Assembly: GCA_030390025.1 (NCBI GenBank)
Contig: JASTWF010000193.1
Coordinates: forward strand, 558,001-622,000
Length of the DNA: 64,000 bases
Reading direction: 5' to 3'
From: Squalus acanthias
Lineage: Eukaryota
Shown here: positions 1,031 to 64,000 of the stretch, one piece after another
Layout: each line of letters starts with the position of its first letter
Position numbering within the stretch: position 1 is the stretch's first letter
The notes under the pieces: generated by a model
Seen by the model: only the letters and a program-made list of their open reading frames with translations
Told to the model about the DNA's origin: nothing
Database searches by the model: none
Position numbers and translations under genes: made by a program

Positions 1031-1942
1031 TTAATTTAATTTTATTAACTTAATCATCTGAGCAAATGGATATTTAATCGCATTCTTTAACGCATCTCTA
1101 AATTTAGTCTGGGCCACTGCATAAATAACCGTGTTGGTGCAGGAACTCAAACGCTGGAGCATATATCCGCTGTGTTCCATGACGGTAAAAGGATCTGCGT
1201 AATCTGTTCGGAAGAAATGAGTATCTGTAATTTGTATACATATTTCATAGAGGAAACTTACCACCCATAGCAAGATAAAACTGCCTGAAATTGCGAGCAA
1301 TAAGATGACTGATTTCCTTCGGTTCTCCATCTCTGGATCATTGTGACTCTCACCCTTCTTGCTCCCTCGGAGTCTCCTTCTGACTCTACTGGCCTGTAGA
1401 ATGATCCTGATGGTCAGAGCATTGAGCAGTACAATGAACACGAATGGAGCGAGTGGGGTTAAAATAATTTGGAGCCAGAGATAAGCCATCCAAAAAAGGA
1501 AAGGTGTAGAAGGTAGATTTTACAGCACAGAACCATTGTATGTTATCAATTATTTCACCAGCTTCACTTACAAAGTAAAGTGGAATGTTTTGTAAAAGGC
1601 TCAAACCACACACCGTTGTTATAATCACAGTCGCAGTTTTTTCGGTGCAATATTTGACTCTCAGCTTCGGGTAAGAAATGGCGATGAATCGATCAAAGGT
1701 GAAGGCGACGGTTAACCAGACAGAACAATTAGTGGCAGAAAATGCCAGGCCGAGATTGAGACAGCAGATGAGAGTATAGTCCAGGAATGAATTTGGGAAA
1801 TAAATCTCTTTAATCTGATACAGAATTACATCAAATATCAGGACCAGTAGATCTGCTGCTGCCATGGCCACCAGGTATCGAGTGATACATGTGGCGAGAC
1901 CGCACTTTCCACGGGAGAGAATCACAATTGTGAATAAATTCG
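1031..1942 (-). pseudogene. GPR139/GPR142-like class A GPCR copy 1, exon 2; 1-nt frameshift (pseudogene or assembly error)
   Basis: Acceptor ttgcag at 1943-1944. ORFs 1386..1925 and 1031..1489 join into one 7TM protein (LVAMAAADLLVL, SVWLTVAFTFDRF, SSCTNTVIY) if one base of the A6 run at 1492-1497 is removed, giving FPFWMAYLW, which matches VPIWVTFIW in the paralogue. Confidence 0.88.
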
Positions 1943-2975: not shown

Positions 2976-3622
2976 AGTCCTTTGAAGTAAATGGAAAAAT
3001 AATCCAGCGAGTTTTCAAACAAGCTGTCAGCTCGCGAGCCCCGGTTTTACACCTGGCGAGCAGAGTTCAGTTTACCCTCTGTCTCTCTGACTTTCCTTTT
3101 CTCTCTCTTTTCTTTAAACTATTTTTATATTTCTGACTCTGTCGCTCTCTATTTCTCTCTCTCTCTCTCTCTCCCTGCCAGTTTCTTCTGTTCCGACTCT
3201 GTGGGTGAAATTTGTATCGGACGGTAGCGCAAAACTGGCGTTAGTGAATTGGCAGCACATTCAGACCGTGCCCGAAATACTTTACTTTTTATTTCAATGG
3301 GAAAAAAATTGTGCGCGGAGTGAAACGGGTTCGGATTCGCTATGAGCCGGTCTCGAGCTGCTGCCGAAGACCTATTCCACCCCCAGTACTGCGAGACTGT
3401 GGTGAAAGTTGTTAAAATTGTTGGTGCTGAAACTGCAGAGAAAATTGTAACTTCCCTGGGAATTTCTGTGACGTTATTGCGTTAAGGTTTCACTAGAAGG
3501 TGGTGACATTTAATTGATCTCAATACAAACAAGCCCGTGAAAACAAACAGACCACAGAATCAACTAGAGCAGTGATACAGGTAAACCCCGAGTGACATTG
3601 ACAACTGATGGTAATGACTTAC

Positions 3623-3692
3623 CAGGAACACCAAACACTGCGAGAATCGGGTAGTAAACCGCTTCAATCTGGGCAAGGATTGGTCGATCCAT
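3623..3692 (-). CDS. GPCR copy 1, exon 1 (MDRPILAQIEAVYYPILAVFGVP)
   Basis: ATG at 3692; 70 nt; G|gtaagt donor; phase 1 joins exon 2 in frame (GVP-A-NLFTIVIL); homologous to 57149-57218. Confidence 0.9.
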
Positions 3693-3769
3693 CTCTTTGA
3701 GTCACACGATGCCGGTGCTGGAGGCAGTAGCTCAGTTTGACAAGAAGATGAAGCCGCTTCAATCCAATC

Positions 3770-3836
3770 CTTTATTTATATCTCAGAGAAATCTCAAGTG
3801 AGACAATTAGGTTACACAATGACTGACATTACTTAC
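3770..3836 (-). promoter_or_regulatory. Putative core promoter of GPCR copy 1 (TATA plus TAATTGTCTCA block)
   Basis: Minus strand reads TAATTGTCTCACTTGAGA-TTTCTCTGAGA-TATAAATA about 80 bp upstream of the ATG; the block is conserved upstream of copy 2. Confidence 0.6.
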
Positions 3837-8349: not shown

Positions 8350-11300
8350 GTAAAGGTCACTTTGTTTTTTTCTTTTTCTTGCTCTTCAAGGGTCCGTGTT
8401 TAAATAGCTGGTTTGAGATAAAACAGAAACTTTGAGGTAGGTAACTGTTAATACTATATTTAATTAGTAACTGTTAATACTATGTTAAATTAATAACTGT
8501 AATACCATGTTATATTAATTTAAATTAGATACATCTTAGTCTTAAGTTTCTGTAAAGCTAGTTAATAGCCTATTAAATGGAGGCATGGCAGGGCAGCTCA
8601 GTCCCACAGAGTGCACTTCCAGTGTCATGTGGGAAATCCAGGATGCTTCCCGTGTCCTGGACAACCACGTGTGCAGGAGATGCCGTTAGCTGGAGGAGCT
8701 CGAGCTCCGGGTTTCGGATTTTGAACAGCAGCTGGCGTCACTCCGGTGCATCCACGAGGCTGAGAACTACGTGGATAGCACATTTCAGGAGGTCGTCATT
8801 CCGCAGCTAAGGAGTATGGGTGACTGCCAGAGAGAAAAGGAGGACCAAGACAGGTAGTGTAGGAGCCCCCTGAGTGCATCTCGCTCTCCAACCAGTATTC
8901 TGCTCAGAGTACTGGTGAGGGCATTGGTTCCTCTGGGTAGTACAGCCAGAGCCATGTCCGTAGCACCACGGGTGCCTCAGCTGTACAGAGGGTGCGGAAG
9001 AAGAGTGGGAGAGCAATAGTGGCAGGGGATTCGATAGTTAGGGGAGCAGACAGGCGTTTCTGCGGCCGCAGACGTGACTCTAGGATGGTGTGTTGCCTCC
9101 CTGGTGCTAGGGATAAGATGCCACTGAGCGGCTGCAGAACATTCTGAGGGGGGAGGATGAACAGCCAGAGGTCGTGGTCCATATTGGTACCAACGACATG
9201 GGTAGAAAGAGGGATGAGGTCCAACAGGTAGAGTATAGGAAGCTGGGAAAGAGATTAAAAAGCAGGACCTCAAAGGTAGTAATCTCCGGATTACTCCTGG
9301 TGCCAGGTGCGAGTGAGCATAGAAGTAGGAGGATAGAGCAGATGAATGTGTGGCTGGAGAGTTGGTGCATAAGGGAGGGCTTCAGATTCCTGGGGCATTG
9401 GGACCAGTTCTGTGGGAGGTGGGACCTGTGCAGGCCAGACGTGTTGCACCTCCACAAGGCCGGGACCAGCATCCTTGCGGGGAGATTTGCTAGTGCTGTT
9501 GGGGGAGGGGGGGGGGGTAAACTAATTTGGCAGGGAGATGGGCACCGGGATGTAATATTAGAAAGTGGAAATAAAGTGATCAAAGGATGGGGAGAGGCAG
9601 AGAGCACCGAAGTAAGAAATAGTAAGGTATTAGGTGGGGTCCAACTAAGAGAGAATACAGGATGGTCTGAGATGGGTTTAAAGTGTATGTATGTGAACAC
9701 GCGAAGCGTAGTAAACAAGGTAAGTGAGCTGCATGGGAATATGATGTTGTGGCAATAACTGAGACCAGGCGCAAAAATGGCAGGATTGGATATTAAATAT
9801 TTCTGCTTATAAGGTGTTCAGGAAATATAGGAAAGGAAAGATAGGAGGTGGTGTGGCAGTATTGGTCAAGGAGAATGTTACAGTGCTGGAGAGGGAGGAT
9901 GTCACGGACAGAATCTATATGTCTAGAGTTAAGAAATATTAAATGTTCCATTGCACTACTAGGTGTATTCTATACATCACCAAATAGTGGGAAGGATATG
10001 GAGGAGCAAATTTTCAGAGAAATTACAGAGAGGTGCAAGAACTATAGAGTAGTGATAATGGCGGACTTCAACTATCCTAATATAAACTGGGATCGTAATA
10101 GTCTAAAGGCAGAGAAGGGAAAGAATTTCTGAAATAACAACAGAAAATGCTGGAGACACTCAACAGGACAGGCAGCATCAGCGGAGAGAGAAGCAGAGTT
10201 AAAGTTTCAGGTCTGTGACATTTCGTCAGAATTTCTGAAGTATGTTCAGGAGAACTTTCTTGATCAGTATGTTTCTGGCCCGATGAGGGAGGAAATATTG
10301 CTGGATCTGGTTCTGGGGAATGAGGTAGGTCAAGTGGAGCAAGTGTCAGTAGGTGGACATTTAGGGAACAGTGATCATAATATCATAAGGTTTAGTTTAG
10401 CTATGGAAAACGAGAGGCAGCAAACTAGAGTAAAAATGTTTCATTGGGGGAAAGTCAATTTCAGTGGGATGAGAAAGGATCTGGCCCAGGTAAACTGGAA
10501 TCAAAGATTGGCAGACAAAACTGCAGTGGAACAATGGGCTGTCTTTAAAGAGGAAATAATTCGGGTACAGTCGAGATATATTCCCACGAAGGAGAAAGGT
10601 AGGGCAACTAAAGCCAGAGCTCCCTTGATGACGAAACAGATAGCCAATATGATGAAGCAGAAAAAGAGCAAGTATGACAGATGTCAGGTTGCAAATACAT
10701 CTGAGAATCAGGCTATATATAGAAAGGTCAGAGGAGAAGTGTAAAAGAAAATAAGAGGGGCAAAGAGAGGATATGAGAATAGAATGGCAGCCAACATAAA
10801 AGGTAATCCGAAAGTCTTCTATAGGCATATAAATAGTAAAAAGGTAGTAAGAGGAGGGGTGGGGCCGATTAGGGACCAAAAAGGAGACCTACGCATAGAG
10901 GCCGAGTGTATAGTTGAGGTGCTAAATGATTACTTTGCATCTGTCTTCACCAAGGAAGAGGATGCTGCCATAGACATTGTGAAGGAGGAGGTAGTAGAGA
11001 CATTTAATAGGATGAAAATTGATAAAGAAGAGGTATTATAAAGGCTGGCTGTGCTTAAAGTAGATAAATCACCAGGAGCAGATGGGGTGCATCCTAGGAT
11101 GCTGAAGAAATCGAGGGTGGAAATCGCAGAGGTACTGGTCATAATATTCCAACCCTCCATAGATACGGGGGTGGTGCAAGAGGACAAGGCTATTGCAAAT
11201 GTTACACCATTGTTCAAAAAAGGGTATAAAGATAAACCCAGCAACTAGAGGCCAGTCAATTTAACCGCGGTAGTGTGGCGGCTTTCAGAAACAGAAATCA

Positions 11301-18424: not shown

Positions 18425-18630
18425 GGGGGATTTGATATTAGTGTGTTAAAGGTCACACCGCCCCACAGGGTGATTTCATATCAGAGTGTTAAAGGTCACA
18501 CCGCCCCACAGGGTGATTTCATATCAGTGTGTTAAGGGGTCATACGGTCCCTCAAGGTGTTTTCACATCGGTGTGTTAGGATTTCTACTATCTCACAGGG
18601 AGATTTAATCTCAGTCTTTGAAGGCCACTT
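18425..18630. repeat. Minisatellite, about 43-bp unit, 4-5 diverging copies
   Basis: ggtgatttcatatcagtgtgttaaaggtcacaccgccccacag repeated. Confidence 0.75.
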
Positions 18631-24676: not shown

Positions 24677-24691
24677 ATTATGTTGTTCTAG

Positions 24692-24951
24692 ATTCTCACT
24701 CTTTGATGTATCACTACACACTGAAACATGGGATTTCTGATCTTCCGGACTATAGTATAATGGAGGTTGTGGATGGCTGTGAGATAGACTATTGTGACAG
24801 CAATATGTACATAACAGTTCCAAGTAAGCAGTGGATGGTGAATTCCTATGACACCAGTTACTGTGAGGAACTCACAATTACTGCAGCCAGTTTCCACGGA
24901 ATCAGAAAGGGCAAGTTTCCAGAACGTTACAGCAGATGAACTTCAGTTCAA
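24692..24951 (+). pseudogene. Orphan MHC class I alpha1-domain exon (paralogue of 40458-40718), 1-nt deletion
   Basis: ag|ATTCTCAC...TCAA|gtaagt; reads DSHSLMYHY...DGCEIDY...VPSKQWM...ASFHGIRKG; 260 nt against 261; restored end QVSRTLQQMNFSS; no alpha2 or alpha3 exon found nearby. Confidence 0.88.
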
Positions 24952-25129
24952 GTAAGTTGATTTGTTAAAAAAAAAAGATCCTCCTGGATCTACCTGGTGA
25001 AACGCACAGCACGCAATCCTAGTTGAATTCTATTATTTACTTTTGCCTATTCATTCAGCTGTACCGGAGACCGATGAAAGCAGTATTCTGTAAATACATT
25101 AGTAATGTTCCAGAACGAGTGAGCGGGAT

Positions 25130-38232: not shown

Positions 38233-38598
38233 ATTTAGTCCGGGATACACCAACTGCCCCCATGTTTAGTCCGGGATACACCGACTGCCCGATGTTTCGT
38301 CCGGGTTACACTGACTGTTCTGTGTTTAGTCCGCGTTACACTGACTGCCTCGTGTTTAGTCCGGGATGCAATGACTGCCCCGGTGTTTATTCCCGGTTAC
38401 ACCGACTGCCGCATGTTTAGTCGGGGATATAATGACTGCCCCAGTGTATAGTCCGGGTTACACCGACTGCCCTCTTGTTTAGTCCGGGTTACACCGAAAG
38501 CCGGCTTGTTTAGTCCGGGTTACACTGACTGCCCTCTCGTTTAGTCCGAGTCACACTGACTGACCCAGTGTTTAGTCCGGGTCACACTGATTACCTCG
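38233..38598. repeat. Minisatellite, 12 x 30-31 bp, in MHC intron 1
   Basis: Unit tgtttagtccgggttacaccgactgcccnn. Confidence 0.92.
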
Positions 38599-40457
38599 GA
38601 CCTTGCGAATGCCCTGGGGGAGCTCCTGTGTTGATTGAAATAGTGAGGTGACGATAGGGGCTCGTGTGGCGCTGGACGCTTAAGAAACCTGCCAGAGAGT
38701 TACTGCAGCACTGAAGTAAAGTCCCTCAATCATAGATGGGGATTTGTGCGGTGAAACAGGCCGACGTGTTGCCAACGTTGGTTGGACTCATTCCAGGATC
38801 TTTCATCACATGAGCTCCAGCCCAGTCAACCCGCCTTTTGTCCCCAGCTCCAATATTGTTATAATTGTGATTGTTCTGTTGTTGTTGTTATTTTTCTCCC
38901 GAGTTTCTTGCGGCGGTGTCCAAGCGGTTCATCTTTAATTCCTGGAGACTCCGGGATAGTCCTGGAGGTTTGGTTAACCTATGCTCCTCCCGCCCGATAC
39001 ATAAAGTGGTGGAGACTGTATATTTTTTGTGATCCGGCTTCATTTACATGAAATGAGCGCCAAGCCCTTTTGATTTAAAGGCAGCCTGCAGTCCCTTAAA
39101 GGGACGGTTCACTTTTCAAGGGTGGTTAATGGAGAGCGACTTACTGGAGCAGCAGTTTGCATGACCTGGTCAGCTGTCCTCCGATTCTCTGGGGCAGCGG
39201 TAGAAGCGCTTGTAGAGCAAGTTAGCTCCGGTATGGAGGATCTCGATTCTTCTAATAGGTAACGATAGGCCCGTCAAATTAGTCAGCTGCAATGACGAGA
39301 GGTGGATGAGCAAGCCAATGGCAGCAACATTGGGTATAAAGTGCACGGTACCCGAAAGCGGCTGATGGCGATCGACAGCCTGTTTTGGTCTATCGACCAA
39401 TTTTCTTTTCCAATGAGTTCAATCGAATAGAAAGTCAGGTTGTAGGCAAACCTGGCTGCTGATTCGCTATCGCCCATTTCGCGCTGCCGCCCAAGACAAA
39501 TTTATATTCAATTTTCCCAAGAATCTGGCTGCATTGCAGGAAGAAACTTAAAGACCTCACCAGGACCGCCAAGGTCAGACTCGGCTTCACATCTCTCTTA
39601 CTGTCTGCATGGCCTCGCACCGTCGGAAGTTAACCGCTGCACTACCAATCCTTTCCTCCCCACTTCCCATGGCTCTCCTCCAATCACAACAGACCCTTCA
39701 CTACATTCCACTGTGGAATTACCAGAAGCCCATTAACAGTTCAAAATATTCAGCAGCCAGTACAAGCATTTTAAATGGTTTAATTAGTGAAATCCCACAA
39801 CATAATACAAGAAAAATGTCTCCCAAATATTCCAGCATTTTATTTGAGACCAACTGAGGATGCCTTTAATATTTGCCTCCCGATTGGTTCCATTTTGCAG
39901 GCAGGATCAGGAACTAGCGGAAAAATGTGGGCAGAGAGGAAAATGTTGTTGAGCGCCTTGATAACGTCTTTAACCCCAATTTGCATATATTCAAGCTGCT
40001 TTTCCCCCTCTTTCGCTCAGTAAATCTGAGGCCAATTTTAATGTCGCTACAAGCAGCAGACTGGGAGCTGATCACTGCGCACACACCAGGGATGGATTCT
40101 GCACGGCTTAGTACCATAATTCTGGGTGCACTTCCTCACTAATTCACCAAAGAATCCCCAGGTCAGACGTGGGACTAAAATCTTCAAGTTACGATTTACA
40201 AATGAGATGAGCTGATGTAATTTATTTCAACCTTCACATTTTTCATTTATTTCGAAAATGGGAATATTCTTGTAATTGGATAAGATTTAATATTAAGGCT
40301 CATTTTGCCTTCTCTGCAATGGTTTAACACGGGAGCGATGGCAAAATATCCAGTGATCTCTCATTTTTCTGAATAAATTGATTTTTCCCAAGTTGTTTAG
40401 CAAACAGACATTTCTAATATTTGATATGCCAATGATATTTTTTTTATTATGTCGTAG

Positions 40458-40718
40458 AGTCTCACTCACTGCTATATTACTACAGCCTGAACCATGGGAG
40501 TGCTGATCTGCCGGAGTATAGTATACTGGGACGATTGGATGGCTGTGAGATAGACTATTACGACAAAAATATGGAAATAACTGTTCCAAGACAGCAATGG
40601 ATGGCAGAAGCATTTGAGAAGAGTTACTGGGACGAATACACAATAACTCAAGCTGGTTTCCACGGACTCATCAAGGGACAGGTTGATAGATGGTTCCAGC
40701 AGAACAACCTAACATCAA
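40458..40718 (+). CDS. MHC class I exon 2 (alpha1)
   Basis: ag..gt, 261 nt, phase 1-1; SHSLLYYYS...LPEYSILGRLDG...VPRQQWM...SYWDEYT...NLTS glycosylation site. Confidence 0.95.
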
Positions 40719-40755
40719 GTGAGTGTATTCGTTTGAATGAATGCAGCGAACGACA

Positions 40756-40934
40756 GGGGTCATTTAAACTTGGGGGATAGTGTAACATGAGTGATATCGA
40801 ACCGCCTGATATAAACCCGCCTCATTTTCCCTTCCATTGACTTCAATACAAATGAACATAAGGCGAGTTGTATAATGGACAACTAATTGGATATCACCCA
40901 TTTTACTCCCTCTTTGGAAGGTAACATTAACCCC
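40756..40934. mobile_element. Short (about 180 bp) palindromic MITE, representative of a family with many copies in the window
   Basis: ggggt...acccc ends with a central cattgacttcaat dyad; relatives near 3203, 28786, 31980, 40957, 42567, 43030, 44894, 45757, 47388, 50755, 52740, 55807 and 56380. Confidence 0.7.
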
Positions 40935-41259
40935 AATGAATGATATTGGTGATACTGGGGGTGAAATTCAGTGTTGGTGAGTGTAAAATGGGCAGTAGCA
41001 GCGAGGCCTGCCCTTTATACATGCTGCCTGCTTTTCCTTTCCCTTCACGTCACAGTAAAATGGGCCGGGTTGTATAACAGGCGACTTTTCCGTTGCCACC
41101 CGTTCAGCAACCCTGCTTAAGTTGATTTCACATTCAACACCAGATAAAACCCGGGCGCCTGTGAATCAGCTGTTGTTTTACACCTCAATCGATTTTCTGA
41201 AAATCGGACATGGTGTACTATTTTGGTGCACACTATAAACAAATAAACTGTAACTAAAA

Positions 41260-41705
41260 AAAACATTAAAGGAAACCGAACAACTTTTATTAAAATTTGG
41301 TTACGGGGGTGAAGATGCACTCAAGTCCCTCTGGTGCCCACCGGTCGCGGAAGGTCACGAGCATGCAGGCAGACACCGCGTGCTCCATCTTCAGCGCCAC
41401 CCGGGCGTGAACTTGGCCGCGGGAGAGAGGCCGGCAGTCAGGCCGAACGACCTCTCGACCGCCTGCTACCTGGACCAGTTGATGGCCTCTTTGGCAAGGA
41501 GCAGTCCTACGAGGAGATCCCCCGATCTGTCCGCTCCACTCCGCACCGGGTGACCAAAGATCAGGAGCGTGGGACTGAAATGCAGCCAAAAATCGAGGAG
41601 CAGCCCCTTCAAATAATGGAAGAGGAGCCGCAACCTCTCACATTCGATATATACATGGAACACGGACTCCTCCAGGCTCGGACATGATGTAAAGTGTGCG
41701 GCCGA
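41260..41705 (-). mobile_element. L1/Tx1-clade LINE 3' fragment (ORF2 CCHC region)
   Basis: CPSLEESVFHVYIEC..L..LF....W...SP...IFG followed by aataaa and a T-rich tail. Confidence 0.75.
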
Positions 41706-41874
41706 TTCAGCATTGGTCATATTTCACCTTTGATAACAGTTAAAAATCCGCCCCTCCTCACCAACACCAGTGTTTATTGAATGATATTTGTATTATTACA
41801 TTTAATTAATGATATTTGTGATGTTATGTTTATTTAATTGTTTTGCTGGTATTTTACATGTAACTAATCATAAT

Positions 41875-42553
41875 GGGCTAGAAATTCGGCTCCCTGGCTT
41901 CCCTCGGGTGCAATGATCGCACGCGCACCTACCTACCTGCCTGCCATTGACCCCTGGGCCCGCGGGGGATTCGGCTCCTGGGCCTCCTCCAACTGCCGGC
42001 GCGCAGTGCTTGCCTATCCCAGGGGCGTAGTTAGTGCGACGCGTGCCCTGGGATCACGTGAGCCATGGAGAGCCAATGGCAGCAGACCATCTTTCATTCA
42101 TAGATTTGACAAGAAGACCTGTCAAATCTATGAATACAGATCGGCCCCAAAACATCCCTAAAACTACAGATAAATTTAAAAAAAACATCACGGGGCTAAA
42201 ACTAAACTTACCTTTGTTTAAAGTAATTAAAAAAGATAAATCTGTGAAAAAATTGTTTAAATTTTAATAAAATCAACACTTACCTTGTTAAAAGAAGGCC
42301 TTGCGCCTTCTTTTTCAATGTGCATCTTCTCCGTGCTTACCCTCACGGAGGATCCTGTAAAAAAAAACGATGTGCGAGGCGAACGCGCTGGCCCTCCGGC
42401 GTGCGCGTTCGACCTCTGAACCCCTTGCTTCAGGGGAACGGAAGTGCCGGTTACCCGCGTATGCGCAGTGCATGCAAGAAACCGGCACTTTCGTTCCGTC
42501 CACGGGTGAGTACACAGTGCGTACTCACCCATGGCGAGCCTAATTTCTGCCCC
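41875..42553. mobile_element. Harbinger-like MITE (related family)
   Basis: TIRs gggctagaaattcggctc and gagcctaatttctgcccc; AAT/ATT flanks; same arm and core layout. Confidence 0.75.
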
Positions 42554-43547
42554 ATTATGTTTATTGGGGTAATTTTTAACTCTTCAGCAAAAGAGTAAAA
42601 CGGCCAATATTGGACCGACCGCTCGTTCTACACATCGCTCGCATTCCCTTTCAATTGGGCGAGGTTTATAACAGGCCACTGACCCGATATTGTCCGCTTT
42701 ACACTATGACCACAGTTTAAAATTAACCCCCCCATTCATGGTAATATTACTTTTAATGAATGATATTAATAACACATTTATTTAATAACATTGGAAATAA
42801 CCAATTAATTGAATCATATTGGCAGTATTGTGTTTATTCAATTATATTGGCAATATTGAATTGAAGGATTATTATTCATATCATTGCATTTGCTCAGTGA
42901 TATTGGTAAGCACATATTTGATATTTAATGTAGATGTGTAAGTTTGAGGTTACAATGCCGTCTTATAATGCGCAGGTGGCTTATCAGAAAAGCATAATGC
43001 ACTGCCCGCAGTTTTCTATTCATTTCGAGTTAACTTTATATTTGGGCAATAGTGTAAAATGAGCGAATGCGAACTGACTACCCAATACACTCCCTGTCTG
43101 ATATTCTCTTCCGTTGACCACAATGGATATGAAAATCAGGCGGGGTGCAAAATGGGCGGACGATCCAATATCGCCCATTTTACACTCTCACCCAAATTCA
43201 AATTTACCTCCATGGAGACAAGTCCATTGTAACAAGGATGGATCATAGGGAACGTTAGCCTATGCTGTGCAATCATATATCAGTCCCCAATTTAATGTCA
43301 TACATTCTGGCATGTATTCTGGCAGCTTTGGCTAATATTCTGGTAAGTTATTTATAGTTAGGTAACAACATTACTAGAAAATTGTGACGGTGAGAAGTAG
43401 AGTTGGTTTATACACGGGAGTTTTCCAGAAATATATGTTGAAGAGTTGGGCAACAAAACACTGAGGCATTATAGCGCCACCACTGGAGTGAGCGTGCAAT
43501 TGCAACGGGCTGACTTTACATCGGCAACTCCCATTTCAAATGTGGAC

Positions 43548-44525
43548 ATATAGAATCATAGAATAATACAGCACAGAAAGAAGCCATTCGGCCCATTCGT
43601 GCCTGTGCCGGATGTTTGAAAGCTATCCAATTAGACCCGCTCCCCTGCCAATTCCCCATAGCCCTGCAACGTTGCCCCTTCAAGTATTGATCCAATTCCC
43701 TTCTGAAATTCACTATTGAATCTGCTTCCAGCATCTTCTCAGGTAATGCATTCCAGACCATAACAAATCACCGCGTTAAAAACATTCTCGTATCGGCTCT
43801 GGTACTTTTTCCAATTACCTTAAATCTGTGTGCTCTGGTTACTGACCTCTCTGCCGCAGGAAACAATTTCTCCTTATTCACTCTATCCAAGTCCTTCATG
43901 ATTTTGAACATGAATTCAGAGGAATTGATAATGGGAAGAAGTTCATAAAAAATGTGACAACAGGAAGTAAGAACCTAAGAAAATAAGAAATAAGAGCAGG
44001 AGCAGGCCATTTGGCCCCTCGAGCCTGCTCTGCCATTTAATGAGATCATGGCTGATCCGATTTTGGCCTCAATTACACTATATTGCCCGCTCCCCATAAC
44101 ACTTGACTCCACTGTTGCTCAAAAATCTGTCTATCTCAGCCTTGAATATATCAATTACTCAGCTTCCACAGCTCTCTGGGGTAAAGAATTCCAAAGATTC
44201 ACGAACCATTGAGAGAAGAAATTCCTCTTCATCCCCGTCGTAAATGGGCGACCCCTTATTCTGAGACTGTGCCCCCTCCTTCTGGATTCCCCGACGATTG
44301 AAAACATCCTCTCAGCATCAACCCTGTCCAACCCCCTGAAAATCTTATATTTTACAATAAGATCAACTGACATTCTTCTAAACTCCAATGAGTAAGGCCC
44401 AACCTGCTCAACCTTTCCTCAGAAGACAACACTTCCATTCCAGGAATCAACCTAGTGAACCTTCTTTGAACTGCCTCCGATGCAAGTATATCCCTCCTTA
44501 AATAAGGAACCAAAACTATACGCGG
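43548..44525 (-). mobile_element. Two adjacent CR1 3' fragments (43548-43910 and 43968-44525)
   Basis: VWNALPEK, AVQRRFTRLIPGM and CR1 tails. Confidence 0.85.
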
Positions 44526-45457
44526 TACATTGTGTGGACAGGTAGTACATAACATTTCTAATATAATATAGATAGATTTATAGTTAAATACCAACATTTA
44601 TTTAATTTGGAAAGCAGAGAAGTAGAATTTTTTGGAGCACAGCAGTTTCTCTGGGAAATGCAAAGCTAAGTCCGAAAGTGCCACCACCGGTGGGGAGGTG
44701 TAATTACATCATGACCAGCTTACGGTGGCAGCTTCCTTATAAAGGTGGCCATAGGAATTTATAAAGGGAAATGTTAACATAAATGTAATAGAAATGTGAC
44801 AATAGGAAGTATGCTTTTGTGGACAGGAACTGCCCACAGGTGTAAGATTTTTTTAAATTTTCTACTCAATTTCCTGTGGTGTTGCATATGTGAGGGGTAA
44901 TTTTAACTTTTGGTGACAGTGTAAAATGAGCGATATTGGGTCGGCCACCCATTACACACACCGCCCAATCTTCCCTTTCATTGGGGCCATGGTGAATTGA
45001 CAGCCCATTTTACATCTTTGAATTTAATAGAAGAACAATGGTTGGAGTGTAAAATAGGCTGCTGATTCGCTATGAGCCCATTTCGCACTACTGGAAAAGA
45101 CCAATTTCACCTCGTCTGTATTTTGTTAAATGGGGCATTGAATATAACATCAGGGACTTGATGTTGACTTACAGGAGATATTGGTTAGGTCACTGTTGGG
45201 GTCTTTCATGCAGTTCTAAGCACCTAATATAGCAAGAATATTACAGAAGACAGCTGTTGTTTAACTTTGGTGCCAATTGTTCTCTTTCTGTGGTTTAAAT
45301 TCTATGTCCCTGTGTGATGAACCTTGTTTTAGACACTAAACTCAATTTCTACCCTTAGTAATGGAAAGAGTGACTACAAAATAACTGAAATTCTTAGATT
45401 TGGTGTGACTAGATGTGATAATTATGTATCTATTGATTGATTCAATTTCTGTTCTAG

Positions 45458-45733
45458 GTACTCACTACATTCAAGGACTGTTTGGCTGTGAGCTGAATGA
45501 TGCCAATCCTAGTGTAGGGGTTTTGAAATTCGCTTATGATGGAAGATACGCATTTAGTTTCGATAAAGACAAATTGGTTTGGACTGTACATGATCCAGTA
45601 GCTCAGACCCGCAAAGTGAAATGGGATAAGGAAACAAAGATGAACCTTTATTTCAAGAGCTTGTTAGAAAAGGACTGTGCTGATTTATGGAGGAAATACT
45701 ATTCAATTGGAAAAGCATTACTAACCAGACAAG
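45458..45733 (+). CDS. MHC class I exon 3 (alpha2)
   Basis: ag..gt, 276 nt; THYIQGLFGCEL...FAYDGR...KVKWD...LEKDC; canonical Cys pair. Confidence 0.96.
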
Positions 45734-45961
45734 GTAAGTTCAGAAGAAACTGGGAGTAATTTTAAAGTGTGGCGATAGTGTAGAACTGGCGATATTGGAT
45801 CAGCTTCCGTTACACACCTCTTCCCATTCTCCTTCAACAGGCGGCTGATCCGATATCACCTGTTTTGCACTAGTGGCAAAAGTTAAAATGACTTTATTCA
45901 TTCTATTCTGAAATATGCGACTTTTATTGAAGTAGAAAATAACTGTCGTTCTATCATGTAG

Positions 45962-46228
45962 TTTCCCCTGAGGTCTCAGTTATTGCCAGGGCTGGTGATC
46001 GTTGGTTTCTCCACTGCATTGTGACTGGATTTTTCCCGCAGTCCATCAGCGTGACCTGGTTGAAGAATGGAGAACATGCCCCTGAGACCAAATCTACTGG
46101 GTTATTACACAATGAAGATGGGACGTATCAACTAACAACAACACTTGAATTTGATCCGTATGATGGGAAACAATACTCCTGTCTTATTGAGCACAGCAGC
46201 TTGCCGGGTGGGAAGACAGTCTCCTGGG
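45962..46228 (+). CDS. MHC class I exon 4 (alpha3, Ig C1-set)
   Basis: ag..gt, 267 nt; LHCIVTGFFPQSISVTWLKNG...NEDGTYQ...YSCLIEHSSL. Confidence 0.96.
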
Positions 46229-47789
46229 GTAAGGACATGAACAGCGATACTGAACAATCCATCAATAATAGCAACACTCACCCATACAGAGATAGAGAGT
46301 AGAAAGAGATCAATGAAATGAATTACTGAACCAAATTGCACATTACCCCCCTGCTTTTCTATTCTATTTCTCTAGAAATGAACCGGATATTCTGTCTCCC
46401 AGTGATGTTTATTTGTTACTATTGGGTCGTCTGTGCTTTTGCTGATGGACAAGAACAGGAAAACTGGAATCTTCCACTCCCACTAACTGTCTTTTCTTGT
46501 CCGTCACTTTTCTCTGTCTTGTTCTTTCTCTCTATTACATTATACATCAGACAACACGTTTATTATCTCTGTACTTCAGCTTGTCTGTGACTGTTAATCA
46601 TTCTTGCTCTCATTTAGTCCATTTCTGTTATCTTCTGACTCTTCCATAATATGCACCTACCCCTCAGTGTGTGCTTCTCACACAGTTGCTTTCTCTATAT
46701 ATCTTTCCCATTGCTTCTTACTGTCTATCTCCACCACATACCCACACACACCGCACGGTCTCAGAGTTAGACAAACAAATTAATCGCTGTTGACAGTCTA
46801 TCTGGGTTAGAGAATGGATTAATCTACATTCACCACCCACTCTCAGATATCAGACTCTTTATTTGCCCGACTTGCTGTTCCTTCACTCTTTGTTTCTGTT
46901 TTCTCATTGTTGTTCCCTTTCACTGTGGTGATGGTGCTGCTCGGTTTCTGAGCTGAACTTTTGCTCTGTGCTGAGCTATTACCCTCTCAGCCTCAGTGTG
47001 TTTTTGCTTCTCTTGTCTCTTTGCTCTTTTGGGGATGAGAGGACGGGTCACTTTGGGATATTAGAGGAGTGGGGAAGTGTTGTGAGGAAAGGTCATTAAA
47101 ATGTAGTGCAGTGGGGGGAGGGGGGATAAAATAATGCGGCCTGGCGACAAGGGTGAGTCTGAGGCTGGGCTTCTGAGGCGGGGAAGGGCCGAAGTGCACT
47201 GGGAGCTGCAGGCAGGGAAGGTGAGGGGCGGTGGGCTTTGCCCAGAAAGCAAGAATCTGCAGCAAGAATGAAGGTTGGGACAGCTGGAAGGGGGACCCCT
47301 GGAAATCAGCATATAAATTGCTTTTGTTGATTAACAGGGTCACCAAATCTCTCCAGGGGAACCTCCTGCTATTGGTTTAGACACAGCGGGGTAGATTTTC
47401 AACCTGCCGCCCGGGTGTAAAACCGGAGTTGCCTCCAATGGGAATAAAAAGCGGGCAGTTTGTGTGACAACCGGTGATCCACAGGGGCAGGTTCACACCA
47501 GAGCGGCGCAGTGAACATCTACCACAAATTGTTTAATAGATAACGGTGCTGCTCATTCAGGTCTCTCCATGGAAAGGTGCCTCCCTCAGGGGAACAGGTA
47601 GGATGATCCTTCTGATCTGGAAATGTATTTCTGGTCGGTTACTGCGCCGATCCTCTGCTGAGGGCAAGTTCCAGATGTTGTGGCCCAACCTGTGCAGGTC
47701 GCAGTTGTTTATGACAATCCCTTCAATTAGACAATCGGATCACTAAAGGTCAGTTTTATAAGCTGCATATACACAGCTTCATATAATCA

Positions 47790-53105: not shown

Positions 53106-53995
53106 TTATTTCCTTAACTTAGTAATTAGAGACAGGGGATATTGAATCAGAATCTTTAACTCCTCTCTGAATTTAGTCTGGGACACTGCATAAATAATGG
53201 TATTTGTGCAGGAACTCAAATGTTGCAGCATATATCCAGTTTGTTCCATGATGGTGAAAGGATTACTGTAATCTGTGTGCAAATATTGAATTTCTGTAAT
53301 TTGTGCACAGATATAATGAATAAAAGTTACCGTCCATAACATTATAAAAGTGCCAGATATGACAAGCAGTAAAACGATGGATTTCCTGCGGTTGTCCATT
53401 TCTGGGTCACTGTCGCTGCTTCGGAGACCCCTCCTGATTCTACTTGTCAGAAGAATGTGCCGGATGGTGAGACCATTGAATATCAGAATCAAAAGAAACG
53501 GAATAAAAGGCATTAAAACTATGTCAAGCCATATGAATGTAACCCATATAGGTACAGTATAGGAGCTTGATTTCACATCACAGAACCACGGTAAATTGTC
53601 AATTATTACGCGAGGTTCTAAAGTAAAGTAAATGGGGATGTTTTCCAAAATGCTCAGCCCCGATATGGTTGCTACAACCACCGCCGCAGTTTTTTCGTTG
53701 CAATATTGAGTCCTTATTTTCTGGCAACAGATGGCGACAAATCGATCAAAGGTGAAAGCGACAGTTAACCAGACAGAACATTCAATAGAAGCAAAAATCA
53801 GGAACAAATTCATACTGCAGACCGGAGTGTAGTCCAGGAATGAATCCGGGAAATAAATCTCATTCATCTCATACAGGACCACATCAAATATCAGGACCAG
53901 TAGATCGGCCGCTGCCATGGCTACCAGATAAATAGTGATGCATTTCGAGAGGCCGCACTTTCCCCGGGAGAGAATCACAATGGCAACCAAGTTTG
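53106..53995 (-). CDS. GPR139/GPR142-like class A GPCR copy 2, exon 2 (intact)
   Basis: Acceptor tttgcag at 53996-53997; 890 nt open frame; LVAMAAADLLVL, SVWLTVAFTFDRF, WFC, SSCTNTIIY; with exon 1 gives 960 nt, 319 aa. Confidence 0.93.
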
Positions 53996-55111: not shown

Positions 55112-57148
55112 TATAATGTGCTATCAAAATATTTCAAACTGGATTGGAGGGCATCGACACATTGCCCCAGTCAGCCCGCTCCTCACCTCGGCAGCGGGAT
55201 TTCCTGTAATGTATCAGATTTATTCTCCATAAAATATAGTACATTGTAATTAGTAGAAAGCTAGGTATTCAGTTATGACCTGTATAAATACTTTCATCAC
55301 TTTTCAACAGTTAGTTCACTTGCAGTGATGCTGCCAAATCTAAAAAAAAATGGAGCGATTGTTAAAAGCACTAGTGATGGGACACGGATTGCTGGCGCTG
55401 CATCGGCGGTGCGCAGGAAGCACATTACTCCGAGTTTGCTGCAGTGCAATGGCCCACACTGGTTAGTATTGGGGAGTCTTCGGCAAACTGTTGTTTCTCA
55501 TCTACCCTGAAAATTATAAATACTGCGAGCTCGGCATTATCTGTTCACGGTGGGATTTCAGCACTCGGCTCGACACAAGAAGTCGATTTTGAACTATCAG
55601 TGCTAGGGCCAAATTAATGATATCGGTGGGCCGCCCGTTATACACTCCTCCTGTTCCTTCGTTTCACTGAGGTCTAAGTTAAACTTACCTACAGGAGGCT
55701 GGATTTTATTCTTAATTAGGGTCCTTTTTGGGTAAATACTCAGGAAAATGGAGCAGTGAGGGTCCCGCTTCTACTAAAGCGGGGGTGGAAACCACTTGCA
55801 TTGTGTGGGGTAACTTTAATTTTGGACCGCAGTGTAAAATGAGCGATATGGAATTCACCGCCCATTATACGCCAGGCCTGATTTCCCTATCGTTTGAAAT
55901 CGATGGAAAGGAAAATCGGGTAGGACCTATAATTAGCGGTCAATTCGATATCACCCATTTTACATTATCACCCAAAGTCAATAGTACACCCACTGTCCGC
56001 AACATTTGACCCAAAATCGATCCCATTTTATCACCAGCTCTATATAACGGTGATATTACCTGCCGACTGTTTCCCTGAGGCCACCCCACATTGAGCAGCC
56101 CGTTATGTTTGCTACAGCTGAGGTTTGCTTTCACTTTGCCTGCCTGTTGATTTTAACTTTTTGGTTCTCTGGAGGTTCTTTCTAGACTTTTAATGCTCCT
56201 TTTAGTCAGCTCCGCAGAATGTACAGTATTGGGCTGGACACATGCATTTCCCAATGGGAATCCCACTATTCCCATGTTACGAGGAGGAGATAGAACAGGC
56301 CAGTTTGGAGTCTCTTGTAATGAAGCAGCATCACAAAGGAATGTTTCTACAACCTCCTGCAGACAAAATCCAAGTCAATGCAAAGGGGAATCGGGCGAGG
56401 TGTATAATGGGCGGCCCCTCCGGTATCACTCATTTTACACTATCGCGAAAATTAAAATGCCCCTTTGTGGCGTTAGGACCACCACACCGCAAACCCGCCA
56501 GTGGGTGGAGAAACCCCGTCAAAACACTTCTCACCCTGACTTCAACCAGCAACAGCTGCACAGGTACATCTGAGAATCTGAGCGCCTTCTTGCTGTTGAC
56601 CCCCAGCCCAGAGCCTCCGGCCCCTTCAAGGTACTCGGGCAGTTGTGCTTCCTGCAGCTCCAAAAGTGATGTCCCTCTTTAATTGGTTTCAACCTTTTAA
56701 AAGTTGCATCACAACTAAATGTCGCTCTTTCCCAGTAGTGGGGCCTAGTAAGGAGTTGCGTTACCCCTCCTAAGCATTGCATCGCTAATGAGGGCTCCAG
56801 GAGGAAACTTCAGCGGGTTAGTGTTGGGAATGCCGTGGGTGGGCGCCTGTCTTGCCTCCCCTCCAACCTGCCAACAAGAGGACTATTCAGCACAAAATTA
56901 CAGGAGAATAAAATCGGCCAGAATGCTGATTTTGAAAGTTCAGAGACAACTGTAGTTTCCATGATGTAATTCATTTAAAACAGCATTTGGGGAAATTAGT
57001 GCGTTTTTCATCTAACTGATCCATTAAAAGTAGCTGTAAAGCAAATAGATCAGAATGATCAGATGGCATTATCAGATACACAGAAAGAGCAGTAAAGCAG
57101 CAGTTAAACACTGGCAAAGATAAACAATAACTGAGAATACTGACTTAC

Positions 57149-57218
57149 CAGGAACACCAAGCAGCGCGAGAATAGGGTAGTAAATTTCTTCTATCTGTGC
57201 AAGTATTGGACTTTCCAT
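57149..57218 (-). CDS. GPCR copy 2, exon 1 (MESPILAQIEEIYYPILALLGVP)
   Basis: ATG at 57218; 70 nt; G|gtaagt donor; in frame with exon 2. Confidence 0.92.
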
Positions 57219-57284
57219 TTTCTGTGAGAAGCGACTTAGCCTGTTATTGTTAACGACACACAGACGAGATATGTTCAGATGAAT

Positions 57285-57352
57285 CCCTCATATATATCTG
57301 AAAGAGGTCTCCTGAGACAATTACATCACACATTAATCGACATTAATTACAG
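57285..57352 (-). promoter_or_regulatory. Putative core promoter of GPCR copy 2 (TATA plus homeodomain/Ebf-like composite)
   Basis: Minus strand reads TAATTAAT..TTAAT..TAATTG-TCTCAGGAGA-CCTCTTTCAGA-TATATATG; conserved with 3770-3836. Confidence 0.62.
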
Positions 57353-59078: not shown

Positions 59079-62000
59079 GCTCTGGGACTGAAAGACCGCC
59101 CGTACCAGTGAAGCCAGACGAGAAGTCAAATTTTGACCGTCCAGAAATTGAATCGCTTGGGACGGCGGAGAGGCAGTTCCATAGCATCACGATTCAAGTG
59201 AAAGTCTGTTGGAGGTATGAGAACACAGTTGTGTGAGTGTGGATCATGTGTACTAAGGGAACACTGTGTAGCGATAAATGTCACGAAGGTATGAGTAATT
59301 GACTGATCGACACGGACAAGGAGGGCGCCTGTCTCACACACCTAGCCTGAGCCGGAATTAAGAGGGTGATTGGGCCCCACGTAATGGCCAGGATCAAGTA
59401 GGCGTAGAGAACCAAAGCACCCTGGAATCGTGAAGTCAATAAATATATGTGTGTGTGCTGTGACTACGTAACCGCTTAAAGTGTTTTAAGGTATCAAGAA
59501 CTAACCCGATTAGAGGAACTCAGTATTTGGTAAGACTGTAAGTTGGACTATATATGGCGTGGTAGAAAGAAATAGAATAGGGACGAATGGTGCCCTTACT
59601 ATGTTCTATGCAGACGACCAGAAGGGTTTAGTTGATAAGATGATGAAGGAGGGGTGGGACCCGCTCCAGAATCCGAAGGTAAGAGAGAGTGGTAGAGGGT
59701 CAAAAACAGAAAAAGACGAAAAAGGCGAGGGTAATACTAGTAAACCAAGTAGTCGCATTAACAAACAAGGTACAACGACTCCACACTAAACTTGCAAGTA
59801 ATAATGAAAGAATTCTAGAATTAGAACAAGAGCTATTATTACACAAAGGAGGTTGCAAGTACGGTCTCACTCTGCGGGAATGAGGAAGAGACGTACCCCT
59901 GACAACAATTAACCAAGGGAAGATGATTAAGAAAGGGTATGAGTCAGGAAACAAACCGACATGGAAGTTATTAATATTTGTGCCGAGACAAATAAAACTC
60001 AAGATTTGCTAAGTGACAGCAACCTTAAAAAATTAAAAAATGCTGGGATCTCAGTTTGTATAAAAGTGTGTATTAAAGAGTGAAAGTTTTCCTGACTGTG
60101 AATGTTTAAGAAGTCACAGTATTTCTTTTGTCTAAAAATCTGTCTTTAAAAAAACGGAAGTCAGTTTTGTTTTAGCTCCACCCACTCTTTTGTACAGAGA
60201 GCTAAAAGCTGTTTAACCCTTTGAAGACCTGTCTTGAATGACGGACAAGTGTGTTGTTTTAAGTTTGTTAATTGTTTTACAAAAGATAAGCTTCAGCCTT
60301 GAAGTCACAGTTGCCAACGTGCCTGGAAGAAAATGAATTTGAATGTTTACAAGGCATGAGTAATTGTGTCTTTGTTAGTGTGTTTTTTTCATTTCCAAGT
60401 GATACTGGTTAGTTTAAAAAAAAACTGATCTGGATTGAATTGGAGTTAGAGCTGAATTAACCTATTAAAACCAGACTTTCATTGTGGCCACGGTGAAATT
60501 CTGGTTGGTGTAAATTTGTGTATAAGATTGTGCACCCAGAATTGAAACAAAACTTCAAACTACAATTTAAGTTAAGCTGGTGTGTAAAAACTGAGAAGAA
60601 AAACAAAAAGTTTGTTTAACAAAAGATTAAGTTTCAGTCTAAGATTTAACCTTGGAGTCGTGGTTGCTATGGTGGAATCCTCCGAAGCAATTTGTTTAAA
60701 TGTGAAAAAAACTAATTTTTCTCCAGTTGTAAGCAACAACTTTAGTATGGCTGAACGAAATTTAAAGATATTGGACGTTATTAAATTCAAGTGTCTTAAT
60801 TTTAAGTTAGTATTTCCCCACAGTGATGGAAGGAAAATTAAGATTTGATAAATTAACCCCTTGGGCTCTTAAACAGAACTATATCAGATTGCCGAAAAGT
60901 AAAGTGGGAAACAATCCTCTGACCAAGGGATGGATCAGTATTAATACAAAAACATACTGGAATAAACCCAGCATCCGGATTATTAACAGAAGGAGTTATA
61001 TGACCTACATTGGAAAGGCAGTAAAACATGGAAAGCTAATAGCAAGGTTAGTTAAGGCGACACAGGCACCTTTAGAAACCGCGGTAATTAAAATAAAGGC
61101 CCACACGAAGGTAGACATGGACTCATAGGAGCCTCAGGATCAGGCTCCCATAGGGAATCGGTATGCAGATTTGGCCGCAAAACTAGCCACGTTTAAACAC
61201 GAGATAAATATGGTCATGACAGCCAGTGGGGTACAGGAAGTGAATATAGTGGAGGTACAAGAAAATACTAGTAAAGAGGAAAAGGAGAGATGGAAACAAG
61301 CTGGCGCACAGTTACGAGATGGAATTTGGAGATGGGGCCCACGAAACCAGGTGGTGACATCGGAATGTTGTAGACAACAACTGATGGGGCTGTACCATGG
61401 TGTAACACATACCGGCAGAAGTAACATGTTGCACCTACTGACACAGTACTGGTGGTGGCCAAAGATGGGTCGAGAGGTGGCGAAGTATTGTCACCGTTGT
61501 ATAATATGCGCTAAGAATAATGTAGGACAGAGATGCAGAGTTAGAGTAGCAAACTAACTGTGATATGTAGAGGGATGTCCCCGGACAGGATGGGCAGTAG
61601 TAAATAATCAGTTGGAAACAGAAATGTCGGGAAGGTTAGACGGAAGCTTGTCGGCACAAGTAGCCGAGATAGTAGCGTTAACAAAGGCGCTAGAATTAGC
61701 AAGGGGAAAGACAGTAAACATCTACACGGATAGTAGATATGCATTCGGAGTGGTACAAGATTATATGACAGCTTGGGGGAGAAGGGGGTTTGTGACAACC
61801 GGAGGGGATCACATAAAACACCAGCAGCGAATAGAGGCCCACTTGGAAGCCACAAAAGCCCCAGCACAAGCTGCAGCAATAAAAATTAAAGCGCACCAGA
61901 AGATACAGAATCAGGAGCAAAAAAGGGAACCAGGCCGCTGATCTAGCAGCACAGCGAGCTCTTGAACAAGAAATGGTTGAACGGAACGTAGCTAGTGCAC

Positions 62001-62178
62001 AGATAGAGGAAATAGATATCAGTAAATTGCATGCAGATGCCCCAGAAGACGAAAGACAGGAATGGTACCGAGTAGGGGGTAGACCAGTTGAAGAGGCAAT
62101 TTGGTGAAAGAATGGAAAGGTGATAGCCCCCGCGTGCATCAGACAAACACTTTCAGAACTACATCATGGAAGCGCCCA
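59079..62178 (+). mobile_element. ERV-like internal region: gag-like coiled-coil remnant, then RNase H / H2C2 Zn finger / RNase H / H2C2 Zn finger; interrupted by CR1
   Basis: AVIKIKAH..GNRYADLAAK; HGVTH...WWWPKM...CHRCIIC; SAQVAEIVALTKAL..VNIYTDSRYAFG; ELHHGSAH. Confidence 0.85.
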
Positions 62179-64000
62179 TAAAGAACATAAGAACATAAGA
62201 AATAGGAGCAGGAGTAGGCCAATCGGCCCCTCGAGCCTGCTCCGCCATTCAATAAGATCATGGCTGATCTGATCCTAACCGCCAATCTACTATCTATCAC
62301 AGAACCATCTCCTGCATCTAACAGAATTGCACACACGAAATAGGAACAGAATCAGGCTACACAGTCCCTGGGCCCGCTCCACTACCCACAGGGCCATGAC
62401 CGATCCGAACCTAGACTCATGTCCAAATTCCTGCCCGCTCCCCGTAACCCTTAATGCCCTTTACTTCTAGGAAACTGTCTATTTCTGTTTTAAATTTAAT
62501 TAATGTTGTAGCTTCTACAGCTTTTTGTGGCAGCATATTCCATGGACCTACCACCCTCTGAGTGAAGTAGTTCCTCCTCATCTCAGTTTTGAAAGAGCAG
62601 CCCCTTATTCTAAGACTATGTCCCCTAGTTCTCGTCTCACCCGTCATCGGGAACATCCTCCCCGCATCCACCCGATCCAACCCCTTCACAATCTTATATG
62701 TTTCAATAAGATCGCCTCTCATTCTTCTGAACTCCAATGAGTAGAGTCCCAATCTACCCAACCTCTCCTCATATGACCACCCCCTCATCCCCGGGATTAA
62801 CCGAGTGAACCTTTTTTGCACTGCCTCGAGAGCAAGGATGTCTTTCCTTAAGTAAGGACACCAAAACTGTATGCAGTATTCCAGGTGCGGTCTCACCAAT
62901 ACCTTGTACAACTGAAGCAATACCTCCCTATTTTTATATTCTATCCCCCTAGCAATGAAAGCCAACATTCCATTTGCCTTCTTAATCACTTGCTGCACCT
63001 GCATACTAACCTTTTGAGTTTCGTGCACCAGGACCCCCAGATCCCTTTGCACTTCAGTACTCTCCAGTTTCTTGCCATTAAGATAATAAATTGCTCTAGG
63101 ATTTTTCCTGCCAAAGTGCATCACCTCACACTTTCCAGTGTTGTATTCCATCTGCCAAATCTCTGCCCACTTACTTAGCCTGTCTATGTCCCCTTGCAGG
63201 TTTTTTATGTCCTCCTCACTCACTACTTTCCCTCCCATCTTTGTATCATCTGCAAATTTTGATATGTTACACTTGGTCCCTTCCTCCAAATCGTTAATAT
63301 AGATTGTGAAGAGTTGGGGACCCAGCACTGACCCCTGTGGAACACCACTAGTTACTGATTGCCAGTCTGAGAATGAACCATTTATCCCAACTCTTTGCTT
63401 TCTGTTAGATAGCCAATCCTCTATCCATGCCAGAATATTACCCCCAATCCCGTGATTTTTACCTTAAGCAATAATCTTTTGTGTGGCACCTTGTCAAATG
63501 CCTTTTGGAAGTCTAAATACACTACGTCCACTGGTTCCCCTTTATCCACTCTATATGTTACTTCCTCAAAGAACTCCAGCAAATTTGTCAAACATGACTT
63601 CCCCTTCGTAAAACCATGCTGACTTTGTCCTATTAAATTATGATTATCCAAATGTCCTGTTACTGTTTCCTTAATAATGGACTCCAAAATTTTACCTACC
63701 ACAGATGTTAGGCTAACCGGTCTATAGTTACCAGCCTTCTGTCTACTGCCCTTTTTAAATAAGGGTGTTACATTAGCAGTTTTCCAGTCTGCCGGGACCT
63801 TAGCGGAATCCAGGGAGTTTTGAAAAATTATTACCAATGCATCTACAATCCCTACCGCCACTTCCTTCAAGACTCTAGGATGTAAGCCATCAGGTCCAGG
63901 TGATTTATCCGCCTTGAGTCCCATTATTTTACCGAGTACCACTTCCTTAGTGATTTTGATCGTGTTTAGCTCCTCTCCCCCTATAGCCCCCTGTTTGTCC
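62179..64000 (-). mobile_element. Young CR1 LINE (RT and 3' UTR), runs off the window
   Basis: Two long ORFs separated only by a 1-nt deletion in the T5 run at 63456-63460; FADDTK; (ttatgttc)n tail. Confidence 0.95.

Follow-up and report, generated by a model that had tools for sequence, protein, structure and literature searches.

Two class A GPCR genes in the window (the whole stretch of DNA that was analysed, 64,000 nucleotides) share a promoter module with an olfactory-style signature, i.e. a homeodomain hexamer beside an O/E (Ebf)-like site with a TATA box behind it, and the sequence indicates that this module is real and old. The combination of an olfactory-style promoter with varied ligand pockets raises the possibility that the receptor family serves to sense chemicals and has been overlooked in that role. 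Both genes lie on the minus strand, 52 kb apart, and each has two exons, the first coding exon being 70 nt long:

53106..53995, minus strand: copy 2 exon 2, intact, class A GPCR (Pfam 7tm_1, E 1.5e-22)
57149..57218, minus strand: copy 2 exon 1, 70 nt, encoding a short N-terminus and most of helix 1, with a GT donor in phase 1, located by tblastn with family proteins
1031..1942, minus strand: copy 1 exon 2, its reading frame shifted by one base in a T run near 1492-1499
3623..3692, minus strand: copy 1 exon 1, 70 nt, its peptide identical in Pristiophorus protein P0033

The copy 2 protein matches Scyliorhinus and Heterodontus proteins at 84-86%, and its best solved relative is GPR139 (E 7.9e-9). 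Each half of copy 1 exon 2 around the frameshift is 83-84% identical to P0033, and the frameshift may reflect either a pseudogene or an assembly error. Between the two copies, dS is 0.75 and dN 0.22 over 315 codons, with a synonymous-site identity of 53% and 48 of 79 four-fold sites identical. A quick tree of 66 proteins, which contained no true GPR139 or GPR142 row, placed the copies in different subclades, copy 1 with Pristiophorus and Rhincodon and copy 2 with Scyliorhinus, Heterodontus and Rhincodon.

Upstream of both first exons lies a block that can be aligned between the copies, and the predicted sites fall within it:

57282..57350, minus strand: copy 2 proximal promoter block, 69 bp, aligned by blastn to 3766-3836 (74.6% over 71 columns, E 1.6e-4)
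57332..57349, minus strand: copy 2 TAAT cluster, three further cores, including the word TAATGTC common to copy 1
57318..57323, minus strand: copy 2 homeodomain hexamer TAATTG, a putative Lhx2/Emx2-type binding site
57308..57317, no strand assigned: copy 2 O/E (Ebf)-like dyad, 0 nt from the hexamer, with one mismatch to TCCCYNGRGA, in the core
57290..57296, minus strand: copy 2 TATA box, 78 nt before the ATG, conserved with copy 1
3766..3836, minus strand: copy 1 proximal promoter block, 71 bp, defined by the alignment with the copy 2 block
3804..3809, minus strand: copy 1 homeodomain hexamer TAATTG, as read in the sequence
3792..3801, minus strand: copy 1 O/E (Ebf)-like 10-mer, 2 nt from the hexamer, with one mismatch to TCCCYNGRGA
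3774..3780, minus strand: copy 1 TATA box, 88 nt before the ATG

The alignment of the block shows identity in 53 of its 71 columns and a single 2-bp gap, and the block ends just behind the TATA box. Its alignment score of 49 was reached by none of 2000 shuffles (the best of which scored 33), and in the 500 bp upstream of the block no alignment between the copies was found (score reached by 1325 of 2000 shuffles). An earlier note on this DNA had started from an 11-mer, which we recovered on the minus strand upstream of both GPCRs (3799-3809 and 57313-57323); the window holds no further occurrence. Taken alone the 11-mer is weak, since shuffling the 300-bp upstream region 5000 times produced a common word of at least 11 bases in 143 cases; it forms the centre of the 71-column block, 105 nt (copy 2) or 117 nt (copy 1) before the start codon. 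The same note had placed the TATA box about 75-80 bp before the ATG, which is correct for copy 2 and some ten bases short for copy 1. A different 11-base word occurs twice on the minus strand of copy 1, about 100 nt apart, at ~3659-3669 inside exon 1 and at ~3755-3765 just behind the TATA box, and a 26-bp unit is repeated three times at 8442-8519, 4.6 kb upstream of this copy. About 3.5 kb upstream of copy 2, on the plus strand at 60800-62200, there are broken retroviral-type pol pieces with RNase H and integrase zinc-binding matches.

Since the copies belong to subclades that each span distant sharks, the block must be old, predating the split of those lineages. As the block is homologous, the question becomes whether it has been kept better than neutral DNA. 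Its identity exceeds both synonymous-site and four-fold identity (binomial p 4e-5 to 4e-3, uncorrected for the choice of the best block). However, neutral divergence is unsaturated and part of the intron can still be aligned, so some of the similarity needs no selection. The introns had been described as showing no alignment, but the first 200 bp do align weakly, including a 40-bp stretch with 72% identity some 165-225 nt into the intron, about equally far from the donor in both genes (minus strand, 3419-3458 in copy 1 and 56924-56963 in copy 2, coordinates derived from alignment offsets). This stretch was matched by 0 of 3000 shuffles with soft scoring and by 17 of 3000 with strict scoring, and is possibly a second regulatory element.

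In both copies the O/E-like site is part of a perfect palindrome with 5-bp arms (57307-57318 in copy 2, 3792-3803 in copy 1), and in both its mismatch lies in the TCCC core; such one-mismatch sites occur at 0.83 per kb. A 2-bp indel inside the dyad gives a hexamer-to-O/E spacer of 0 in copy 2 versus 2 in copy 1, and the hexamer lies 27 nt (copy 2) or 29 nt (copy 1) from the TATA box. The promoter stretch has an AT content of 60% in copy 1 and 67% in copy 2, with a TATA box in both. The dyad and the extra TAAT sites reported for copy 2 are present: the 151 bp upstream of its TATA box hold eight TAAT/ATTA cores, a count reached by 0.5% of window bins, while the three cores of copy 1 are reached by 23%. 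Copy 1 had been judged the poorer fit, but read two bases further on it contains a 10-mer with a 2-nt spacer inside the dyad and a single mismatch, equal to that of copy 2. Sites for Smad, Meis/TALE, Nkx2 and GATA were also considered, and none of them appears to suit both copies as well as the hexamer plus O/E site.

We defined a composite as a hexamer and an O/E site with at most one mismatch within 0-3 nt of each other, the definitions having been chosen with the sequence already known, and took the expectation from 60 shuffles. The 64 kb contain two composites, both at these promoters, compared with 0.33 expected per window and ~4e-4 per 150-bp promoter; requiring a TATA box behind the composite lowers the expectation to 0.017 in the window, while a laxer definition raises it to 2.5 per window and ~3e-3 per promoter. 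The proposed arrangement of hexamer, adjoining O/E-like site and TATA box is therefore borne out in both promoters and is rare by chance, although the two promoters, being homologous, amount to about one observation.

These counts bear on a reading in which the 11-mer and dyad are mere leftovers of common descent beside a conserved TATA box, their resemblance to Lhx2/Ebf sites having arisen by chance. We consider it very unlikely. It draws on the modest dS, on the still alignable 5' part of the intron, on the ease with which shuffles yield a common 11-mer, on the indel inside the dyad and on the background of the window, which holds 82 palindromes of the dyad's shape and 3.9 laxer Ebf matches per kb. 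It does not readily explain why block identity should exceed synonymous-site identity, why a one-mismatch O/E-like site should persist in both copies despite the indel, why the composite should occur nowhere else in the window, or why similarity further upstream has been lost.

O/E, homeodomain and TATA sites are enriched elements of mouse OR promoters, and the O/E consensus TCCCYNGRGA used here is the one printed in the same source (PMC3247239, Young et al. 2011, accessible text). According to the accessible parts of PMC5608512, PMC11643329, PMC12547500 and PMC7804114, juxtaposed Lhx2/Ebf sites are enriched in mouse OR enhancers and depleted from OR promoters, the latter holding both sites but further apart (PMC12547500, PMC7804114). 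The earlier statement that adjacent Lhx2 and Ebf sites typify OR promoters and enhancers thus applies to the enhancers, composites being depleted from the promoters. In the Sfaktiria composite probe, whose hexamer is as in copy 2, the Ebf 10-mer follows 2 nt after the hexamer (PMC5608512, Monahan et al. 2017); the same text describes the composite Ebf half-sites as degenerate and reports that spacing matters, a 2-bp insertion having impaired recognition of the mouse composite. Against the 20-mer Greek Island pattern (as given in the accessible text of PMC11643329), copy 1 has one mismatch in the right register, a level reached by 9 of the 108 TAATTR sites in the window, and copy 2 has five mismatches, which reverses the earlier ranking of the two copies. 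As a sole search tool the Greek Island pattern was rejected as too loose (15-23 sites per kb at one mismatch). Mouse V1R promoters carry motifs different from those found here. Olfactory neurons are the cells in which a hexamer, an O/E site and a TATA box have best been documented together.

A search with the copy 2 protein returned 2342 of 4717 candidates at E<=1e-10, a full count that may include more distant kin. Among the best 120 of these 2342 matches, the 116 that were named all came from sharks or rays, mostly under the name 'probable GPR139', with 26 on apparently one Heterodontus contig and 16 on one Heptranchias contig; this is the large, clustered, lineage-specific expansion expected of a chemoreceptor repertoire. 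No relatives were present in the metagenome contigs or prokaryote genome contigs scanned. A family profile compared with solved structures gave GPR139 (PDB 7vug) as the best sequence match (E 6.5e-20, ~25% identity). The pocket residues listed for GPR139 in the accessible text of PMC5430874 are F109, H187, W241, R244 and N271; in the family, F3.33 is kept in 67% and W6.48 in 99%, and H187, R244 and N271 are replaced. With ~25% identity and three of the five pocket residues replaced, the family is not GPR139. A structure search confirmed a class A peptide-receptor fold without singling out GPR139 (rank 18), the predicted model having seven helices and a pLDDT of 86.

All 30 family members scanned with Pfam matched 7tm_1, with weak Srx matches in four and no OR, V1R or taste-receptor match in any of the 30. 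Membership in the known olfactory families (OR, TAAR, V1R, V2R) was rejected on the grounds that 7tm_1 alone matched and that the best solved match is GPR139. The N-terminus is very short, in canonical form in 55 of 104 models and with a glycosylation sequon in one of these. Promoter DNA was also sought within the over-long N-termini of other gene models, a check with low power in which none of the 8 matched. Across the family, intracellular loops 1 and 2 contain four cysteines (A1 / P0002 residues 37, 42, 113 and 122) that are 94-96% conserved and form a possible lipid or metal site.

The nearest non-shark kin are the P0227 clade, a single-copy orphan with about one gene per amphibian plus sturgeon; a P0227-type search gave 25 matches (20 amphibian, 1 sturgeon and 4 elasmobranch), and in the quick tree the amphibian clade was sister to the shark expansion (SH-aLRT 99). 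A coelacanth-type single-copy orphan has its own, separate shark orthologues. These single-copy orphans are probably the GPR210A/B sets of PMC6504862. As judged by sequence comparison, the receptor genes are an elasmobranch expansion related to, and not orthologous with, GPR139. We found no publication on either the expansion or the promoter in a literature search that covered article texts and few of the subscription journals.

Variability of the ligand pocket was measured in 104 family proteins of 280-345 residues among the first 181 ids, using our own helix numbering and pocket list, which follow common conventions and leave out position 6.54, whose inclusion would have been post hoc. Mean entropy was 1.90 bits at the 26 pocket positions. 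The 47 remaining helix positions of the outer half averaged 1.39 (permutation p 0.004), and the 64 of the inner half averaged 0.76. The order was reversed in a single-copy relative (53 orthologues, identity matched at 59% vs 58%), where the values were 0.60 and 1.02 (p 0.007). The excess at the pocket also appeared within single species (24 Heterodontus proteins, p 0.027; 22 Heptranchias proteins, p 0.021). This pattern supports a family with many ligands and one signalling route, as would be expected of any multi-ligand family, immune ones included. The suggestion that this GPR139-like family may be an unrecognised chemoreceptor repertoire fits the protein evidence insofar as this points to many ligands.

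Alternatively, the family may sense chemicals outside the nose, much as GPR142 or the rodent Mrgpr expansion does, with related homeodomain and Ebf factors acting on the promoter; the places to consider would be endocrine cells of the gut, taste buds, solitary chemosensory cells and sensory ganglia of the skin. GPR142 is described as sensing aromatic amino acids in endocrine cells of the islets and gut, and the family largely retains F3.33 and W6.48 of the GPR139 pocket. In the catshark, moreover, V2R and V2R-like genes have shifted to gills, testis and rectal gland, and the nose is described as V2R-dominated. We nevertheless regard this alternative as distinctly unlikely, the promoter combination being the one best documented for olfactory neurons.

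Known olfactory receptors of sharks are few, namely 34 V2Rs and 4-9 genes in each other family, and in the catshark, whose nose is V2R-dominated and appears to consist of microvillous neurons, 8 OR genes were examined without expression being detected (PMC10116579, accessible text). A catshark brain-and-olfactory library has no GPCR among its 50 most specific genes in the accessible text of PMC11979771, but V2Rs are equally absent from that list, so the absence of GPCRs is weak evidence. Among the genes examined in the accessible parts of these two articles there is no sign of the shark GPR139-kin family, and another catshark supplement does not mention it. No RNA run is listed as carrying the copy 2 sequence. 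Three same-label runs compared with copy 1 each yielded paralogue contigs 82-90% alike over exon 2 (3/3 runs) and none over the promoter; we did not count these runs as expression, because their RNA status is a guess, their tissue is not given and one contig enters the intron. Four Logan proteins were likewise rejected as transcripts on account of their intron-like N-termini.

Between the two receptor genes lie MHC sequences:

40457..46230 (ends approximate), plus strand: MHC class Ib gene of the UGA lineage, with alpha1, alpha2 and alpha3 exons (Pfam MHC_I and C1-set)
24678-24966, plus strand: another alpha1-like exon, which shares 75% identity with alpha1 of the UGA gene and has no neighbouring alpha2 or alpha3 that could be found

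The alpha1 exon of the class Ib gene matches PDB 9ch4_A (E 1.7e-41), a chain that reads as nurse shark UGA in the accessible part of the PMC10751288 supplement, and UGA is reported as CD1-like and lipid-binding (PMC12562908, accessible text). Leader and membrane exons of the gene were not located in the window, and the second alpha1-like exon is likely a gene fragment. With a UGA-type class Ib gene between the receptors, the window is very likely MHC, and the receptor locus very likely sits among the class Ib, C4 and TRIM genes of that region. The plus strand between 32371 and 35151 holds an open frame of 926 codons that matches reverse transcriptase and GIY-YIG, with a 69-bp exact repeat at both ends, apparently a young Penelope-type element, and there are minisatellites at 38234-38598 and 18425-18578 with 31-bp and 43-bp units, respectively.

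The MHC location keeps an immune reading alive without deciding it: the core promoter would be real and conserved, but the repertoire would serve immune or barrier tissue, like expansions of formyl-peptide or chemokine-like receptors, and the dyad would be a B-cell Ebf site or no Ebf site at all. This is unlikely, though it has more to recommend it than the location. Variable pockets fit it too, the paralogue contigs found in all three runs, whose tissue is not given and which may be DNA, leave room for it, and an OR-type gene with immune-cell expression has been published (PMC13113109, accessible text). Against this, a hexamer abutting an O/E-like site is an olfactory arrangement rather than a B-cell one, and support from immune tissue was likewise not found. 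Multigene families of many kinds, mammalian ORs included, gather in or near the MHC, which weakens the argument from location. A candidate chemoreceptor cluster interspersed with class Ib genes is reminiscent of the pairing of V2R and H2-Mv genes in the mouse.

The reading that we favour, if only tentatively, is a chemosensory-neuron repertoire under homeodomain and Ebf control. The stretch would be the core promoter driving a two-exon GPCR gene; it would have come down from an old duplication and been maintained by selection, with transcription probably starting near the predicted TATA box. An Lhx2/Emx2-type homeodomain factor and an Ebf dimer would bind side by side ~10-30 bp upstream of the TATA box and would restrict transcription to chemosensory neurons, most likely those of the nose. 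The receptors would then be an elasmobranch repertoire derived from GPR139/GPR142 kin, in which the signalling side was kept and the ligand pocket varied, each member being tuned to different small molecules, perhaps amino-acid or amine-like, given the kin and the acidic residues conserved in the pocket. Counting against this reading, there are two homologous promoters only, a 2-bp indel shifts the dyad, both O/E cores are mismatched, the intact copy 2 fits the Greek Island pattern poorly and the better-fitting copy 1 is frameshifted; by analogy, the depletion of composites from mouse OR promoters and the dominance of V2Rs in the shark nose would also weigh against it.

The more specific proposal of an uncounted elasmobranch olfactory family, i.e. 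hundreds of genes from GPR139 kin under Lhx2/Ebf control with an enhancer-type composite at each promoter, is possible but more doubtful. If true, the family would outnumber the shark V2Rs and overturn the view of a shark nose with ~50 receptors; that figure comes from surveys of the four recognised families, which sought known families alone and may have missed a large share. It would also provide a test case for whether an unrelated GPCR lineage can come independently under the Lhx2/Ebf programme. If the tissue is instead immune, the genes would form a hitherto undescribed repertoire of receptors within the MHC of the oldest lineage that has adaptive immunity. Both outcomes, sensory and immune, would be new.

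Compared with known receptors, the shark family resembles GPR139 and GPR142, class A GPCRs activated by Trp/Phe, in mostly keeping F3.33 and W6.48, and differs from them in having hundreds of paralogues where each of those is one gene. It is also unlike the single-copy 'GPR139-like' orphans of amphibians, sturgeon, coelacanth and fishes, which have about one gene per species and a conserved pocket. The shark promoter directly precedes a coding first exon, unlike that of OR genes, whose coding regions are single exons behind non-coding exons. With the mouse OR promoters it shares homeodomain, O/E-like and TATA sites within ~60 bp, AT-richness and a clustered GPCR multigene family, but its sites are juxtaposed, its O/E core is mismatched and its receptors are not ORs. 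As in the Greek Island composite, TAATTG is followed at once by a degenerate Ebf palindrome in both shark copies; the fixed 2-nt register of that composite is matched by copy 1, copy 2 being 2 bp tighter, and the shark element is a TATA-proximal promoter, 27-29 nt before the TATA box, whereas the mouse element is an intergenic enhancer. The short N-terminus of the shark family is like that of ORs. Finally, the family is like the OR, TAAR, V1R/ORA and V2R/OlfC families, as described in the accessible text of PMC10116579 and PMC10869828, in being a clustered multigene family with pocket-focused variation and a frameshifted copy, and unlike all of them in being of separate origin.
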